From an uncultured delta proteobacterium (GTDB lineage Bacteria; Desulfobacterota; Desulfobacteria; Desulfobacterales; JAFDCJ01): DNA of 63,708 nucleotides. A program made the position numbers and the translations under genes. The stretch covers positions 1 to 63,708 of the forward strand of contig CAVYNY010000027.1 of assembly GCA_963769935.1 (NCBI GenBank). The letters run 5' to 3'. Under the pieces are notes generated by a model that ran no database searches, had not been told where the DNA came from, and worked only from the letters and a program-made list of their open reading frames with translations. Shown piece by piece: positions 5,310 to 63,708 of the stretch; position 1 is the stretch's first letter, and each line of letters begins with the position of its first letter.

Positions 5310-5820
5310 GCGGGGTGCGGGGAATGGGCATAGGGCGTAGAGCCGGGCGCATAGAGTAAATGACAAGGCGGTGCGGGGAATTGATGTTGGATGTTGGCGG
5401 TTTGAGGTTTGAGGTAAAAGGATAAAGGAAGGTGCTGTCGCGCCAGTTGATAGCTCATAGTTGATAGCTGGAAGGAAAAAGGTTAAAGGTCAAAGGCTTT
5501 AGGTGTAAATCGCACGGCACTTGGCATTAAGTCGGCGGTTGAGGGCTAAGGATCAAAGATATCAGGCTCAGTATACAGGGTGCAGGGTTGAAGGTTGCAG
5601 CGAGGCTTACAGGGCCAGCGTATGGTTGATTGGGTTTACGAACAGATGGGTCCCCTGAATGCTAATGAAGATTGATGTTCAACAACTTAAGAGCTTAAGA
5701 GCTTACGAGCTCAAGAACTTAGCAACTTCCTCGCCTCCCCGCTTCTCAACTTCCCAGCCTCCCAGCTTCATAACGTCCGCCTTCTGTCAGCTGTCGTCTG
5801 ACACCTGAACCTGACACCTA
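5310..5820. repeat. Long intergenic mosaic of 7/8-mer periodic repeat tracts
   Basis: gcatagg/cgtagag/gcataga; tttgagg-tttgagg-taaaagg-ataaagg; agttgat-agctcat-agttgat; gcttaaga-gcttacga-gctcaaga; ctgacac-ctgaac-ctgacac. Confidence 0.8.
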
Positions 5821-54985: not shown

Positions 54986-55456
54986 ATGAGCGCTTCATTT
55001 CGCGATCGATTGGGATCGATCATTATGCTGGTTTTTATTGCTGTTCTGTGGGTACAACGGGACTATACGACCCCCTTCGGCGGTATTTTCCCCGACCGGA
55101 TCATGATCATCATGACGGGTTTTGTCGTTATCACCCTGATCCTGTCATTTACCCGCTTCCGGGTAATGGCGGATACAGACAAGAAAGCGGAAAATGAGGG
55201 CGGGGAGCGGTGGTCCGATATGGGGGTGGTCATCGCCATCCTGTTGTTGTGGGTGCTGCTGCTGCGCTATGCAGGCTTTGCCCTGTCGGGAGTAGTGGGC
55301 TTCGCGTCCATTGCCTGGTACATCAGCGGGCAGCGGAAAGATTGGCAGACGATTGCCAAAGCGCTGGCCCTGGGACTGGCCATCACGTACCTGATCATCC
55401 TTATTTTCGGCCACCTGTTGCAAGTCCCGCTGCCCCCAGGCGATATTTTCGGCTGA
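54986..55456 (+). CDS. TTT small permease (TctB-like)
   Basis: About 4 hydrophobic segments; ends [10 protein letters not shown]. Confidence 0.88.
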
Positions 55457-55512
55457 TGGAGATGGAGACTATCGTTCGCTTCCTAAAAACCTCATCAAAG
55501 GAAAAAAATATC

Positions 55513-56617
55513 ATGCGTATCACCGAAGTAAAGGCTGAATTATTGCGGATGCCGCTGCCGCGCCCGATGCAGTCGGGTTCTTCCAGCGGTAAAAAAGGCG
55601 GGCCGGTAGGTCATATCAACATGCCGCTTGTATTCATCACCACGGAAGCCGGGATTCGGGGCGTCGGGTATTCCTGGAGCCTGCTGGGCGGCGCAACGGC
55701 CACCCGCTGCGTCCTGCAGGACGATTTTGCGCCCCTGCTGATCGAGGAGAATGCGCTTGACCACGAGCGGCTTTGGGAGAAGCTGTACCGGCGACTGCAG
55801 TCGGTCGGCCGTCGCGGACTGGTTACACAGGCCATGGCGGCCGTCGATCTGGCCCTATGGGATATTAAGGGCAAAATCGCCGGCCTGCCGGTATACAAGC
55901 TGCTGGGCGGCAGTCGGGAAAGCGCGCCGGTCTATGGCTCCGACGGCGGCTGGCTGTATATGAGCGTGCCTGAGATGCTGGCGGCTTTCGAGGGTTATCT
56001 TGCGCAGGGAATGATGGGCGTTAAAATGAAGATCGGCCATGACAGACCCGAAGGAAGACATTCGACGGGTAAGCGAAGTTCGTAAGGGACTTGGCGATGA
56101 TGTCTGGATCGCCGTTGACGCCAACCAGAAATGGGATCTCCCGACGGCCATGCGGGTAGGGCGCGAGCTCGAACAGCTCGGCGTTGCCTGGTTTGAAGAA
56201 CCATTGTTGTGTGAGGATATTGCCGGCCATGCCAAACTCGCAGCGGCCCTGGATATTCCCATTGCCATGGGAGAAACCCTGGGGTCGCGTTTCGAGTTCG
56301 ATGCATATTTGCGTGCAAATGCGGTCGATATACTGCAGCCGGATATTATCCGGGTCGGCGGCATCACCGAAATGGTCAAAGTGGTGACGCTGGCCGATGT
56401 GGCCCAGTTGCCGGTGGCGCCGCACCACATGATGGAATGCACCATTCAGGTGGCCTGCGGTGTCATGAAATCGGGTCCCATCGAGTACATGCCGTGGGTG
56501 GCAGGCGCATTTGCGGAGCCGATGCAAATTGAAAACGGCCGGATGCTGCCGCCGCAGAAACCGGGCTTGGGGCTGGAGATTCCCGAGGAGATCATTCAGC
56601 GCTATCGGGTGGGATAG
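55513..56617 (+). CDS. Mandelate racemase/enolase superfamily protein, +1 frameshift near 56044
   Basis: [15 protein letters not shown] | VDANQ, WFEEP, MGE, LQPD, PGLG. Confidence 0.9.
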
Positions 56618-57955: not shown

Positions 57956-59470
57956 ATGGAAAATAGGGAAATGCGATCCACCGAACCTGCCCGAACCTCT
58001 TCGCGGGACTTTCTCCGCGTCCTTTTTAAACGCAAAACCCAGATAGTGTTGTTCTTTGCGGTTACCTTCGTGACCGTAGCGGTGGGCACATTTGTTGCCA
58101 AACCCACCTACCAGGCCGTCGCCCAGATCCTGGTCAAAGTCGGCCGCGAGAACATCTACGTGCCCGAAACCGGCAGCTCCAACCCGGTGGTCAGCATCAA
58201 CCGCGAGGAGCAAATCAATTCCGAGATTGAAATCTTAAAAAGTCCGTCGCTGGCCAAGGATGTGGTGGAGGCAGTGGGGCCGGCCGTGATTTACCCGCAG
58301 CTCGGCGACCACAAGCCGGGAGTTCTGGCATCCATTCTTCCGGCCGGCAAAGAAAAAAATGACGAAGCCCTTCCGGTTGAAAACGCGCTGCTGGCGCTGC
58401 AAAAGCAGCTGGATGTTCAGGGCATCAAAAAATCAAACGTCATCGAGGTCAGCTTCAAGCACCACGACCCGCAGATGGCCGCTTTTGTGGTCAACACGTT
58501 GGCCCGGCGCTATCTCGACCGCCACGTGGAGGTTTACAAGACCCCGCACTCCTACGAATTTTTCCAGCAGCAAACCGACTTGCTGAAAAAAAAGCTCACC
58601 GCGGCCGAAGACCGGCTCAAGGCCTTGAAGGCGCAGCATAGCATCACTGTGCTGGCCGATCAGCAAAGAATTTTGTTCCAGCGCACTCAGGACGCTCGTA
58701 TGGCCTTGAACGAGTCCCAAAGCCGCAGCGTGGAGGTCAAAAACCGCATCCAGCTGCTCAGCCAGCAGCTGGGGGGGCTGCCCAAAACCATCGCCCAGGG
58801 CGAGGAAATCGACAATAATCCCTATATCATCAACACCCTGGAGGCCCGCCTGGTGGAGCTGCAGCTGCGCGAAAAGGAGCTGCTGGCCAAATACACCGAG
58901 GAAAGCCGTCTGGTCAAAAATGTCCGCGACGAGATCCGGGTGGTCACGGACAAACTGGCCTCCCAGGAGAATAAACGCTACGGCAAAACACGCTCCGGGG
59001 TGAACCCCACTTACCAGAATCTGCAGGAGGAGCTGCTGCGCAACCAGGCCGATTACAAGGCCCTGACGGCCAAAATCGAATCGCAGCAGCACCAGTTGGC
59101 GGCCTACCAGAAAGAGCTGGCCGATCTCAACAAAATCGAGGTGATGAACGATCAGCTGCAGCAGGAAGTGGATGTCGATCGCCAGAACTACCGGATGTAT
59201 CTGACCAAGTTCGAGGAGTCGCGCATCTCCGATGCCATGGACTCGGAAAAAATCACCAGCGTCAGTCTGGTCGAACCGGCCCAGGTGCCCATAAAGCCGG
59301 TCAGCCCTAAAAAGGCGCTCAACCTGGTGCTGGGTTTTTTCCTGGGAGCCATGGGCGGCCTGGGTCTGGCGTTTTTCATGGAGTATCTGGATGACAGCCT
59401 GGACAGTGTGGAGGACGTGGAGGCGGCGCTGGATGTGCCGGTGCTGATCTCAATCCCGTGCGAGAAATAA
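57956..59470 (+). CDS. Polysaccharide copolymerase/chain-length determinant (GumC/Wzc periplasmic part)
   Basis: N-terminal TM, INSEIEILKS, coiled coils, PIKPVSPKK + C-terminal TM. Confidence 0.92.
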   Translation: MENREMRSTEPARTSSRDFLRVLFKRKTQIVLFFAVTFVTVAVGTFVAKPTYQAVAQILVKVGRENIYVPETGSSNPVVSINREEQINSEIEILKSPSLAKDVVEAVGPAVIYPQLGDHKPGVLASILPAGKEKNDEALPVENALLALQKQLDVQGIKKSNVIEVSFKHHDPQMAAFVVNTLARRYLDRHVEVYKTPHSYEFFQQQTDLLKKKLTAAEDRLKALKAQHSITVLADQQRILFQRTQDARMALNESQSRSVEVKNRIQLLSQQLGGLPKTIAQGEEIDNNPYIINTLEARLVELQLREKELLAKYTEESRLVKNVRDEIRVVTDKLASQENKRYGKTRSGVNPTYQNLQEELLRNQADYKALTAKIESQQHQLAAYQKELADLNKIEVMNDQLQQEVDVDRQNYRMYLTKFEESRISDAMDSEKITSVSLVEPAQVPIKPVSPKKALNLVLGFFLGAMGGLGLAFFMEYLDDSLDSVEDVEAALDVPVLISIPCEK

Positions 59471-59938
59471 TGTCTCACACAGAGCTCACAGCGCGGATTA
59501 ATAATCGACCGGCGGGCGCCATGGAAAAAATATCTCACACAGAGCTCACGGAGGGCACAGAGAATTAAGATCAGGCGGCTGGCGCCGGTAAAGAATGTCT
59601 CACACAGAGCTCACGGAGGACACAGAGAAATAATTAATCTGCCGGCTGTCGCCGGGAAAAAAACCTCTGAGGACTCTGCGGGCTCGAGTGAACGAAGTGA
59701 ACGGGCGTGAGGCAATATCTCACACAGAGCTCACGGAGGACACAGAGAATTAAGATTCAGGCGGCTGGCGCCGGTAAAGAATGTCTCACACAGAGCTCAC
59801 GGAGGACACAGAGGAAATAATACTGCCGGCTGTCGCGGGGAAAAACAACCTCCCTCTGAGGACTCTGCGGGCTCGAGTGAACGAAGTGAACGGGCGTGAG
59901 GCAATATGTCACACAGAGCTCACGGAGGACGCAGAGAA
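59469..59938 (+). repeat. Array A: six copies of aatRtctcacacagagctcacggagRRcacagag
   Basis: Copies at approx. 59469, 59529, 59594, 59714, 59780, 59903; higher-order ~187-bp duplication; complementary arms ctctgaggactctgcg. Confidence 0.92.
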
Positions 59939-59943
59939 TTTTC

Positions 59944-60151
59944 AGACAGGATTTACAGGATGAGTTGGATTTTTTTCGCCTCCGGCGAAGGTGAAACAGC
60001 CTGCAGGGAATCAGGTAGGAGATGATGGTTATAGTAGTAATTTTAGCCTTTTGAATCAACTGTTTTCCGCTGAAAGCGGATTTACCTGGATCACTTTCTT
60101 CCGGAAAGTGAGCCAAAAAATTAAATCCCAATGATCCGGTAGATCCTGTCT
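59944..60151. repeat. Element B copy 1 (~205 bp, 9-mer periodic terminal inverted repeats)
   Basis: agacaggatttacaggat...atccggtagatcctgtct. Confidence 0.88.
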
Positions 60152-60206
60152 ACAAAAAAAATAAAATCAGAGGCAAGCTGCGAAAGGCAAAAAAAGAGAG
60201 GTTGCA

Positions 60207-61073
60207 ATGTACTGCAGACATTATGGGTTCGCGGAAAAGCCGTTTGACATCACCCCCAAGCCGAAGTTTCTATATATGACCCCCGGCCACCGCGAAGCGC
60301 TGGCAACCCTGCTTTACGGGATACGGGAGCGGCGCGGGATTATCGCCATGGTCGGCGACGTGGGCACCGGCAAGACCACCCTGCTGCGGGCGGCCATGCA
60401 GCGCCTGGGCCGGAAGACCAGGAAAGCATTTCTTTTCAACAGCGAATTGCCCTTTAAGGATGTGGTGCTTGTCATTTTAGACGAACTCAAACTGCTGCGG
60501 CCGGACGAAACCCTGAGCAAACTTCAGGCGGTCAAACGGTTGACCAGATTTGCCGTTCATTTATTTGCCAGGGGCGGCAATCTGGTGATCATCATCGACG
60601 AAGCCCAAAACTTTTCCCGCGAAACCCTGGAAGGCCTGCGGATGATCTCCAATCTCGAAACCGACAATCTCAAGCTGATCCAGATTGTCATTGCCGGCCA
60701 GGTCGAGCTGGATAACAAGCTGGATAACTACGGCATGCGGCCCTTTGTGCAGCGCATCAATCTCAAAAGATATGTCAAGCGGCTCGACGAGAAGCAAACT
60801 TACGGCTATCTGGCGCACCGCCTGAAGGTGGCCCACTACAGCGGACCGCCGCTGTTCGATAAAAAAGCCCGGCAGCTGATCTGGGCATACTCCGAGGGGG
60901 TGCCGCGCAAGATTAACAACATCTGCGACAATGCCCTGCTGAGCGCGTTCGGACAGGGTGCGCAGACGATTTCAGGGCGGGTGATCGAAGCAGTGGTGCA
61001 GGACCTGGACTACAGGCAGGCAGAAAAGCTGCGGCGGAAAATAATTCCGCTGCGAATAGCCGCGATGTTTTGA
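60207..61073 (+). CDS. ExeA-like AAA ATPase (EPS/PEP-CTERM-locus type)
   Basis: PFDITP.P.FLY, GDVGTGKTT, IIDEAQ, SEGVPRKINNICDNAL. Confidence 0.92.
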   Translation: MYCRHYGFAEKPFDITPKPKFLYMTPGHREALATLLYGIRERRGIIAMVGDVGTGKTTLLRAAMQRLGRKTRKAFLFNSELPFKDVVLVILDELKLLRPDETLSKLQAVKRLTRFAVHLFARGGNLVIIIDEAQNFSRETLEGLRMISNLETDNLKLIQIVIAGQVELDNKLDNYGMRPFVQRINLKRYVKRLDEKQTYGYLAHRLKVAHYSGPPLFDKKARQLIWAYSEGVPRKINNICDNALLSAFGQGAQTISGRVIEAVVQDLDYRQAEKLRRKIIPLRIAAMF

Positions 61074-61077
61074 GGAG

Positions 61078-61344
61078 AACCGGCTGTCGCCGGGGGAAAA
61101 ATATCTCACACAGAGCTCACGGAGGGCACAGAGAACCGGCCTGTGGCGCCGGGAAAAATATCTCACACAGAGCTCGGAGGCACAGAGAATAATTGACCGG
61201 CTGTCGCCGGGAAAAAAAAGACTCTGAGAACTCTGGCTCAGAGCGAGCGGGGTGAGAAAATAACTCACACAGAGCTAACGGAGGGCACGAGAGAAAGTAT
61301 ATTCAGCCGGCTGTCGCCGGGGGAAAAATGTCTCACACAGAGCT
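61078..61344 (+). repeat. Array A, second block (four copies)
   Basis: ctcacacagagct x4, interspersed with ccggc-tgtc-gccgg hairpins. Confidence 0.9.
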
Positions 61345-61360
61345 TATAGTGATAATTTTC

Positions 61361-61564
61361 AGACAGGATTTACAGGACTAGTTGGATTTTTTCGCCTCCG
61401 GCGAGGGTGACAGGCACATGGGTCTTATGCAAATTAATGATCACTGCGGCAGTATGACCCAAAGCGAGGGATGGTCTTCCGCTGAAAGCGGATTTACTTG
61501 GATCACTTTCTTCCGGAAAGTGGTCCAGAAAAAAATAATCCTAAAAATCCGGTAGATCCTGTCT
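61361..61564. repeat. Element B copy 2
   Basis: Same ends and internal hairpins as 59944-60151, unrelated central ~65 bp. Confidence 0.88.
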
Positions 61565-61590
61565 AAAATATTAAATAATCAGGTGTTAGC

Positions 61591-62331
61591 ATGGGAAATA
61601 CATATGAAGCAATGCAGCGGGCCGAGCGAGATTTCTTGCTGCTCAAAAAGCCGACGGCAGTTGAGGCCGACGAGAAATACGGCCTCAGCCCGGCTGCGAA
61701 AGCCGCCGCTGCGGCGCCTACCAACGGCTGGCTGGAGCTCCACAACCGGCTGCTCAGCCATTATCCGCAAAAGCCCCTGCGTACGCTGATGGTCACCGGC
61801 ATCAACCACGGGGTCGGGGTAACCAGCACGGTCATAAAATTTGCCCGCGCCTTAACCCGGGGCACCGGCCGCAATGCGCTCCTCATCGATGCCAATTTGA
61901 GAACGCCCGATCTGCACCTGCAGTTTGACATCAACCCGGACCAGGGCATGGCCGAGCTGATGAAAAACAACGGCCTGGTGAAATTCAAATTTAAAAAAGT
62001 CCTGGATGAAAAGCTGTATGCGTTTACCTGCGGCAAGCGCGGCAGCGTCGGTCAATTCGAAGCCCGGCGTTTTGAAGCCCTGATGGAGGCGGCCCGCGAA
62101 CATTTTGACTACACGATCCTGGATTCGGCGCCGATCACGGGCTGCTCCGAATCCCAGGCCATCTGCTCCCGGGTGGACGGCGTGCTGCTGGTGATCGAAG
62201 CGGGCAAGACCAGAAGACAGGTGGCGATGCGGGCCAAAAAGGAGCTGGAAGATGCCGGCGGCCGCCTGCTCGGCGTGGTGCTCAACCGGAGAAAGTACTA
62301 CATACCGGAATGGATATACAAGCGGCTATAA
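61591..62331 (+). CDS. CpsD/CapB-family BY-kinase-like protein
   Basis: LLIDANLRTP, ILDSAP, VDGVLLVI, LGVVLN; Walker A reads GVGVTS. Confidence 0.88.
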   Translation: MGNTYEAMQRAERDFLLLKKPTAVEADEKYGLSPAAKAAAAAPTNGWLELHNRLLSHYPQKPLRTLMVTGINHGVGVTSTVIKFARALTRGTGRNALLIDANLRTPDLHLQFDINPDQGMAELMKNNGLVKFKFKKVLDEKLYAFTCGKRGSVGQFEARRFEALMEAAREHFDYTILDSAPITGCSESQAICSRVDGVLLVIEAGKTRRQVAMRAKKELEDAGGRLLGVVLNRRKYYIPEWIYKRL

Positions 62332-62341
62332 ACGGCCGCTT

Positions 62342-62700
62342 GGCGTTAGGTTTGAGGCGAACGCTACGCGGCTTAAGGATAGAGGTTTGAGGTTGGAGGC
62401 GGAAAAAAGCGATAGGTTTGAGGTTGGAGGTTGGAGGCGGTGATGATAGCAATAGGTTTGAGGTTGGAGGTTGGAGGCAATAAAAGATAGGCGGACGGCA
62501 CAAGTCAATAAATACATCTGAGATTGTCGATTTTGCCTCGAACCTAAAAGCGATAGGCTCCTCAGACCTCAAACTGGAAATATGGTTGGAGGCGGAACAA
62601 AAGCGATAGGTCCGAGGTTGGAGGTTAGAGGCGGAATAAAAATCTGCGATCGATTAGGCTGAGGTTGGAGGTTTGAGGCACGGAAAAAGATCTATGTTTG
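62342..62700 (+). repeat. Heptamer array (aggttKg) upstream of the four-helix-bundle gene
   Basis: Repeated taggtttgaggttggaggttggaggc; short inverse arm gcctcgaacct...cctcagacctcaaac. Confidence 0.92.
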
Positions 62701-62716
62701 AGGAGCGAAGTAAGAA

Positions 62717-63125
62717 ATGAGTAATTATTTGTTTCCTTTTGAAAAACTTGATGTTTGGAAATTATCTGTTGATTTAGCTGAGTATGTGCTCGATCTGCTC
62801 GAAAAATTTCCTCCGAACCGGCATCTCCGACTGGTTGGTCAAATGGAAGCTGCGGTCAAATCCCCCGCGCAGAACATTGCTGAAGGTAAGGGCAGACAGT
62901 ACAAAAAAGAGTTTCTCCGAATATTTACATATAGCCCCAGGGATCATTGTATGAAGTCGAGACCTTGAACGTGGTTTTCGTAGAAAAAAGTTCTTCTCAG
63001 ACAATGAAGCTCAAGAGGTAAGAAACCGCTGTGAGCAAATTGATCGAAAGCTAAATGGATTAATCAATTCCCTGCGTGGAACAAAAGGACGCAAATTCAA
63101 TGAAAACACGCCTGCGTCGGTTTGA
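62717..63125 (+). CDS. Four-helix-bundle protein (23S rRNA IVP/TIGR02436-like), ~3 indels
   Basis: FEKLDVWK, SPAQNIAEGKGR, then in shifted frames YLHIA, GSLYEVET, IDRKLNGLINSL to TGA 63125. Confidence 0.88.
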
Positions 63126-63708
63126 GGTTGGCGCCTTCGGCGGTTTGAGGTTGGCGCCTTCGGCGGTCTGAGGTTTGAGGCTTGAGGTTGGAGGCCAAAA
63201 AAAATGCGTTAGGTTAGAGGTAAGCGCCTTCGGCGGTATGAGGTTTGAGGTTGGCGCCTTCGGCGGTATGAGGTTTGAGGCTTGAGGTTGGAGGCCAAAA
63301 AAAATGCGTTAGGTTAGAGGTAAGCGCCTTCGGCGGTTGGAGGTTTGAGGTTGGCGCCTTCGGCGGTCGGAGGTTTGAGGCTTGAGGTTGGAGGAAGGGC
63401 CTTCGGCCGTATGAGGCCCGAGGTTGGAGGTTGGAGGCGGTAATAAAAGGCGTTAGGTTTGAGGTGGACCGGCTACGCGGCTTAAGGATAGAGGTTTGAG
63501 GGCAGAGGCAAAAAAAACGAAGCAATCGTTTAGAGGCACGCGCTATGCTAAGGCTTAAGGCTGTTTTTTTTGCCTCCAACCTAAAGCGCAGCGCTCCTCC
63601 AACCTAATGCAATCGAAGATTACTTTTATGCCTCCAACCTACAACGCCGTAAGGCAATTGCGTAGCGATCCTCTATCGGCCGAAGGCCATGCCTCCAACC
63701 TCCACCCT
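63119..63708. repeat. Heptamer array with mini-hairpins downstream of the four-helix-bundle gene
   Basis: cgccttcggcg x6 within gaggttK repeats, 100-bp tandem period; inverse arm gcctccaacct from 63572. Confidence 0.92.

Follow-up and report, generated by a model that had tools for sequence, protein, structure and literature searches.

The closest described counterparts of the element reported here are intervening sequences of 23S ribosomal RNA (rRNA) that bear an open reading frame (ORF), as in helix 45 of Coxiella burnetii and in Leptospira; their S23p/PF05635 protein is of the same family, their complementary termini loop out the ORF, heptamers precede it and the ORF decays, as outlined in PMC4990558. 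In REPIN/RAYT systems, as summarized in PMC3116915, one gene lineage goes with each repeat family, the gene is flanked by its own repeat, and many gene-less inverted doublets are dispersed in spacers. We analyzed a 63,708-nucleotide (nt) stretch of DNA (the window) that is an entire contig (C27; CAVYNY010000027.1) of the genome of an uncultured delta proteobacterium (G000; GCA_963769935.1) and that ends in a comparable arrangement at positions 62342-63708, termed here the cassette: a gene of the TIGR02436/PF05635 four-helix-bundle family set between arms of tandem heptamers. By analogy, the cassette appears to work like an ORF-bearing rRNA intervening sequence moved to the spacers of messenger RNA (mRNA), with a REPIN/RAYT-like population, and is a member of neither class. 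Unlike the 23S elements as presented in PMC4990558, it lies in spacers of protein-coding operons, has arms of 100-400 nt with lineage-specific units, carries DNA-type hairpin modules and has hundreds of gene-less relatives per genome. Unlike REPIN/RAYT systems, it has TIGR02436 between its repeats instead of a HUH Y1 transposase (11 Y1 matches lie elsewhere in G000); its arms are tandem heptamers and, compared with the systems covered in PMC3116915, the gene itself occurs at many unrelated sites.

Diversity-generating retroelements (DGRs) resemble the cassette in the fold of their Avd protein (a predicted cassette protein reaches a template-modelling (TM) score of 0.88 to 4DWL) and, as far as described in 10.1101/2023.10.23.563531 and PMC3240598, in having hairpins with G..A loops nearby. 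The DGR hairpins given in PMC3240598 differ in having 4-nt loops and stems of 7-10 bp, and the cassette differs from DGRs in its 7-10% identity to Avd and in having no linked reverse transcriptase at the relatives' loci checked. Compared with insertion sequences and miniature inverted-repeat transposable elements, no transposase of its own was found in or beside the cassette, and long direct repeats were found at a minority of loci. The Nostoc SDR elements of Elhai and colleagues (2008) are reportedly hairpin repeats of 20-30 nt that insert into heptamer arrays and into themselves; we know of no four-helix-bundle link for them and liken them to the cassette by description only. Intergenic heptamers of Xanthomonas and Nostoc are like the cassette arrays in lying in spacers, often as convergent pairs, and the consulted portions of PMC4692102 name no partner gene or mobile-element link for them and describe the bacterial excess of heptameric repeats as unexplained. 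No description of the cassette class was found in the open-access literature (subscription papers and supplements were outside the scope), and a term search of the available part of PMC4679880 returned no mention of the protein.

Across phyla, the repeat unit of the arms appears to track the lineage of the protein rather than that of the host. The family is represented in each of the 23 genomes of the genus by 1-17 matches, and 50 of these loci were taken; scanning with the intact initial segment of the window protein yielded 49 loci. Removal of 8 partial domains and 7 duplicates from 104 profile matches left 89 loci, consisting of 37 close relatives of the window protein (at least 62% identity) and 52 others. 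The close relatives span at least three phyla, Desulfobacterota, Planctomycetota and Nitrospirota among others. The window unit was detected on both sides of the gene at 28 of the 37 close relatives and at none of the 52 others, and the enrichment of heptamer arms around homologues that had been anticipated for this locus is thus present. Among loci found later, L202 (64% identity) is bordered by hairpin arms of the same kind, and other units accompany six proteins of a sister group (42-49% identity). The two arms aligned with each other in inverted orientation at 69 of the 89 loci. The coupling of unit and protein is strong, short of a formal test.

Behind a given host gene, the package occurs in some related bacteria and is missing from others, and it is therefore likely to be a mobile cassette. 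Filled and empty alleles, which the original prediction had proposed to look for in relatives, exist at the gltX, ftcD and pyrC sites. The gltX site was present in 20 of the 23 genomes and held three full genes of different lineages, each with its own arms (L109, L114, which belongs to the window lineage, and L118), the arms at this site being identified by eye; the remainder comprised one truncated gene, about ten arm-only spacers, two repeat-free spacers and one locus that was too short. Among 18 genomes with the ftcD site, five were filled, one was truncated, five had spacers under about 20 nt and the rest held scars or other repeats. The pyrC site (40 loci, two duplicates included) held three lineages, scars and several short spacers, and a scar of the window's arm family was found there at L159, a close relative. 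At the junction downstream of capB, the site of the window cassette, a capB orthologue at an E value of 1e-30 was detected in 2 of 40 relatives, both distant: in one (G016), the spacer measures about 90 nt and includes a short unit remnant, seen by eye, that aligns poorly to the window arms, and the other (G013) has no arms and a different next gene. A search with the export gene of G016 did not turn up the contig that would continue the window.

The window cassette, whose features all lie on the + strand, starts 10 nt past the stop codon of a host gene for a CapB-like polysaccharide tyrosine autokinase (61591-62331; TIGR01007 at 1.4e-26, under the curated cut-off), which is outside the cassette. 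The cassette gene is not in an rRNA gene, as had been noted, and no Rfam match was found in 59400-63708 at E values up to 1. The blocks run in the order G, C, G, gene, G, C: a G-rich heptamer block that forms the left arm (62342-62480), an internal C-rich block (62529-62575), a second G-rich block immediately 5' of the gene (62580-62700), the gene (62717-63125), an expanded third G-rich block (63118-63505), which contains a 100-bp unit in 2.5 copies with 96% matches (63142-63394), and a C-rich right arm (63565-63708), which is cut off by the contig end. The internal C-rich block had been overlooked; it is homologous to a counterpart at L054 and L059, with its hairpin slot decayed in the window. 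Both large G-rich blocks reached a lag-7 autocorrelation of 0.51 (at most 0.41 and 0.35 after shuffling); the value was marginal in the second G-rich block (0.39 against a shuffle maximum of 0.39) and in the terminal C-rich block (0.37, shuffle maximum of 0.35), and 0.27 in capB, which served as the control. Fifty-seven inverted pairs give the cassette region complementary termini around the ORF, and the region folds at -482 kcal/mol, a value that stands without a shuffle comparison. The inner C-rich block and the right junction of the window align with the L054 and L059 cassettes, which lie between pyrC and a sigma-54 regulator gene (pilR), a site unrelated to that behind capB; the start of the right arm is homologous to both, and a 9-nt hairpin module is extra relative to L054.

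The heptamer arrays, the inverted arm and the direct repeat around the gene, all reported in the original prediction, were found where it had placed them. The direct repeat, first given as about 50 bp, extends in alignment to 62342-62408, which opens the first G-rich block and has one hairpin at 62362, and 63449-63517; it has a 30-nt exact core, the first 16 nt of which are unique in the G000 genome. As a general bracket the repeat did not hold up, with an exact match of at least 16 nt at 7 of 83 loci, several of them merely array units, and it was rejected as a general cassette boundary, being a minority state. Long direct repeats around the gene also occur at L080, L041 and L171, and L166 is the single-copy form of L171. 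Given its rarity across loci and the L171/L166 pair, the window repeat is likely the outcome of duplication or crossover within the arms and no fixed boundary. At L041 and L171, which belong to unrelated lineages, the downstream repeat duplicates the left arm together with the ribosome site and roughly ten codons from the start of the gene, after which it passes into the right arm near the same conserved residue; L041 was alone in carrying such a codon-copying repeat among 85 loci tested for it.

The family assignment of the window gene was confirmed (TIGR02436 at 48 bits, cut-off of 24), whereas its integrity was not, as three frameshifts had gone unnoticed. The ORF at 62717-62968 covers only positions 1-61 of the 109 in TIGR02436, and the remainder of the domain falls in other frames because of three single-base indels: one base is gained near 62919 and another near 62935-62938, and one is lost near 62975-62978. 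The window gene is either a pseudogene or an assembly error: two of the three indels lie in homopolymer runs, and split genes occur at 11 of 185 homologous loci in the G000 assembly, a frequency that does not separate the two. Eight public sequencing runs were mapped and none covers the gene or the full arms. The first 68 residues of the window protein are 82% identical to the intact protein of L054, and the intact relatives L054, L060, L067 and L070 are better specimens than the window copy. A profile built from the relatives matched 2GSC at 2.9e-31. The L054 protein was modelled with a pLDDT of 91, and the predicted structure matched XCC0516 (TM 0.92), BT_0352 and Avd (4DWL; E 0.017, 7% identity); the Avd-like fold that had been proposed is thus borne out on a predicted structure of an intact relative, which is also like XCC0516.

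The arms carry mini-hairpins with GNA triloops. The window cassette contains 13 C-GNA-G hairpins on the C-rich strand and none on the G-rich strand (shuffle means of 0.3 and 1.2). Eight with TNC loops, which are GNA on the opposite strand, lie in the expanded G-rich block; an 11-nt hairpin occurs six times, at 63132, 63155, 63225, 63255, 63325 and 63355, copies that are not independent because of local duplication with periods of 23 and 100. Other hairpins are located at 63398 and, in the right arm, at 63586, 63612, 63660 and 63678. The flanks of the 37 close relatives contain 124 C-GNA-G hairpins in 21.7 kb (shuffle mean of 33, maximum of 50), about four-fold more than expected, and those of the 52 others contain 41 in 30.6 kb against 46 expected, nothing beyond chance. 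Hairpins adjoining a unit lie on the C-rich strand in 71 cases and on the G-rich strand in 8 (23 loci vs. 3), and none of eight control loop types had a comparable strand skew in numbers above 15. The strict polarity claimed for these hairpins therefore holds in the window cassette and among its close relatives; its failure on the scale of the genome is taken up below.

Hairpin stems covary by compensating pairs and the middle base of the loop is free. In a loop-blind census, for which only the linkers served to define a slot, 65 of the 69 slots at 19 loci held a hairpin. Stem length ranged from 2 to 7 bp; 42 loops were GNA and 6 were GNNA, and just 2 of these 48 were of the GNRA type. The strand that bears GNA has, at either end of the cassette, its 3' end directed away from the element. 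G(N)A-type loops are described in PMC13037366, as far as that source was available, as far more stable in DNA than in RNA and as occurring at origins of single-stranded DNA (ssDNA) and N4 promoters, and we read triloops and non-GNRA tetraloops of fixed polarity as a DNA signature. GNA hairpins were also enriched in the spacers of G000 as a whole (499 of 1,814, or 27.5%, vs. 1,048 of 9,025 genes, or 11.6%), and GNA mini-repeats are inserted into ORFs in another genome (G007). These patterns suggest that the hairpins act partly as independent mini-repeats, yet are built into the arms with fixed polarity in the window lineage.

The pairing of gene and arms was not confined to the window. G000 has seven TIGR02436 matches, and all seven genes, inspected by eye, are preceded by a short G-rich tandem array and followed by its reverse complement, every gene having its own 7-, 8- or 9-base unit; the upstream arm of one, on contig C11, is just a short remnant. 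The prediction of gene and arms as one unit is upheld, that of a locus-specific element is not, and the window copy is one decayed or mis-assembled member of a widespread class. Tandem Repeats Finder detected 1,156 merged arrays of period 7 or 8 in G000, mostly gene-less and 110 of them within long genes. As judged against crude ORF calls, arrays near an upstream stop were G-rich in 309 of 413 cases and those near a downstream start were C-rich in 208 of 306. Arrays were half as frequent in divergent spacers (88 of 924) as in the others (549 of 2,888 and 140 of 773), and spacers with both array types had the G-rich before the C-rich array, the convergent order, in 126 of 132 cases. Intergenic units of G000 matched the arm units of four-helix-bundle genes of other genomes exactly in 143 of 848 rows (33 when shuffled, maximum of 46) and with one mismatch allowed in 552 of 848 (423 when shuffled, maximum of 452). 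One array family has 26 loci, one of which bears the gene, and the asymmetric inner ends of that copy recur in the gene-less doublets of the family.

The neighbours of the cassette were examined by scanning 49 of 62 extracted neighbouring ORFs of relatives. Many are polysaccharide genes and 8 had no family. In the window, which ends before any downstream neighbour of the cassette, no reverse transcriptase was found upstream of the cassette and no transposase in or adjoining it; elsewhere in G000 there are 10 RVT_1 and 2 Y2 matches besides the Y1 matches. At L065 and L066, C-rich heptamer runs occur in frame ahead of the four-helix-bundle domain and also within the glycosyltransferase ORF that follows.

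The layout, the lineage coupling, the presence/absence alleles, the decay to doublets and the DNA-type polar hairpins were directly observed. We consider the chances about even that the window holds an expanded, frameshifted copy of a likely selfish cassette that sits behind host stop codons and probably moves via an ssDNA step. The protein, as a pentamer, may bind its own arms as an adaptor; cutting and joining would be supplied in trans by a host or mobile-element enzyme, and movement would pass through single-stranded DNA. Base pairing between the arms in the transcript may loop the gene out, in the manner of rRNA intervening sequences, in which case the insertion would be nearly neutral. 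Loss of the gene would leave the gene-less doublets that fill the spacers of G000. A wider proposal is doubtful and is offered tentatively: PF05635 proteins outside rRNA may drive transposase-less mobile elements, the pentamer reading its own heptamer arm as ssDNA and GNA marking the outward strand; the doublets left behind would be the chief origin of the unexplained repeats of 7 and 8 bases in many bacterial genomes, the ORF-bearing rRNA intervening sequences would be insertions of this kind into 23S genes, and Avd would be a domesticated member. PF05635/TIGR02436 has solved structures and no function, and the cassette gives a candidate for what the family binds. The lineage-specific pairing of protein and unit offers a direct test of cognate vs. 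non-cognate binding, the covarying, strand-locked GNA hairpins indicate which strand and chemistry (DNA) to examine first, and the cassette offers an origin for the ORF-bearing rRNA intervening sequences.

Several results weigh against a mobile cassette with an ssDNA step. The coupling falls short of a formal test because the unit pattern was drawn from the compared sequences, several loci are kin and a quick tree was used, in which the group needs two changes and has no starred branch, so that the lineage is provisional. Reverse transcriptase, transposase and integrase were all absent from the 49 scanned neighbouring ORFs. Recent identical copies of the bare cassette were not found among the loci, the single case with multiple copies is carried by an IS91-like element (G007), and no clean target-site footprint could be read because the relatives are too distant. 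Array abundance and close-gene presence did not track each other across 151 genomes. GNA polarity was rejected as a genome-wide property, with 21 array families of G000 favouring the C-rich strand, 43 the G-rich strand and 46 flat, and nearest-neighbour DNA folding of single arms does not favour the C-rich strand. Two measures lean to RNA, mildly in the case of facing G-U pairs (156 vs. 119 A-C pairs) and slightly in that of the sense duplex, which was the stronger at 42 loci vs. 24.

These last two measures bear on the possibility of an RNA-level device, which we consider unlikely, though a serious contender: the arm stem in the mRNA would be cut by RNase III, spread would occur by ordinary recombination or transfer between like arrays, and the GNA hairpins would be separate mini-repeats. 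RNase III cleaves the heptamer-bearing element of Coxiella at its first repeat, as described in PMC4990558. The excess of G-U pairs fits such a device, as does the orientation of the cassette gene, which shares its strand with the ORF upstream at 67 of the 76 loci for which a call was made, and the scarcity of arrays in divergent spacers relative to the 18-19% of other spacers. The enrichment of GNA hairpins in all spacers and their insertion into G007 ORFs fit separate mini-repeats, and crossover between arms accords with the copies bracketed by direct repeats and with the occurrence of L166 as the single-copy counterpart of L171. Yet lineages with unrelated units occur at one site that is repeat-free in other genomes, where homology alone cannot seed an array, and strand-fixed triloops and non-GNRA tetraloops are a DNA signature.

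A non-autonomous retroelement, in which the Avd-like protein would recruit a reverse transcriptase in trans and the transcript would be copied into DNA and inserted, appears improbable. According to the parts consulted of 10.1101/2023.10.23.563531 and PMC3240598, the DGR reverse transcriptase requires Avd as its partner, Avd binds RNA, and DGR targets bear a DNA hairpin with a GRNA loop; the 10 RVT_1 matches in G000 could supply the enzyme, and insertion follows the direction of transcription. However, none of the loci checked has a reverse transcriptase beside it, identity to Avd is just 7-10%, and the GNA strand is antisense on the left and sense on the right, such that a single complementary DNA strand would be insufficient by itself. 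That the arrays are host-made simple repeats and the gene an unrelated passenger in permissive spacers is largely refuted and very improbable. G000 has about 1,150 arrays vs. 7 genes, and arrays of the cassette unit occur in 20 other genomes, mostly without a close gene: 2 of the 151 genomes have a close gene, and matches to the unit pattern were most numerous in G000 (37), absent from G120 and numbered 1-32 in those 20. Against this stand the tracking of protein lineage rather than host, the seven different gene-unit pairs in one genome and the inner ends that gene-less doublets share with the gene-bearing copy. That the arrays are a read or assembly artefact is scarcely credible, since the same unit, blocks and junctions recur in independent assemblies, even though the contig ends within an arm, no public run covers the cassette and two of three indels are in homopolymer runs; assembly error could still affect only the indels of the gene and the number of 100-bp copies.

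The IS91-like element of G007 carries six near-identical copies of the gene with an 8-base arm (L034-L039, on six contigs), each at one end of the element, which encodes Zn_Tnp_IS91 and Y2_Tnp and has a sharp left boundary. GNA mini-repeats occur in both the small gene and the transposase and differ from copy to copy. At positions 1-1100 of contig C31 of G000 (L108), hairpin-bearing arrays of the cassette unit flank two small reverse-strand ORFs, and every array block there is G-rich on one strand. Judged by eye, the two ORFs resemble a toxin-antitoxin pair.

Repeats were also detected elsewhere in the window. Gene-less compound arrays of several unit families lie at 1-240, 989-1130 and 5381-5819, the last with the cassette unit at 5399-5415. 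Another gene-less repeat system occupies two spacers 5' of capB (59529-60160 and 61075-61570), with 9-10-base units, a 189-bp unit in 2.2 copies, inverted ends and GNA-type hairpins. The sequence at the end of contig C32 recurs at the start of the window, and contigs C32 and C27 may adjoin. Two overlapping ORFs in different frames at 55210-56617 look like one split gene, which we take to be of the enolase superfamily, and may mark a second frameshift in the window.
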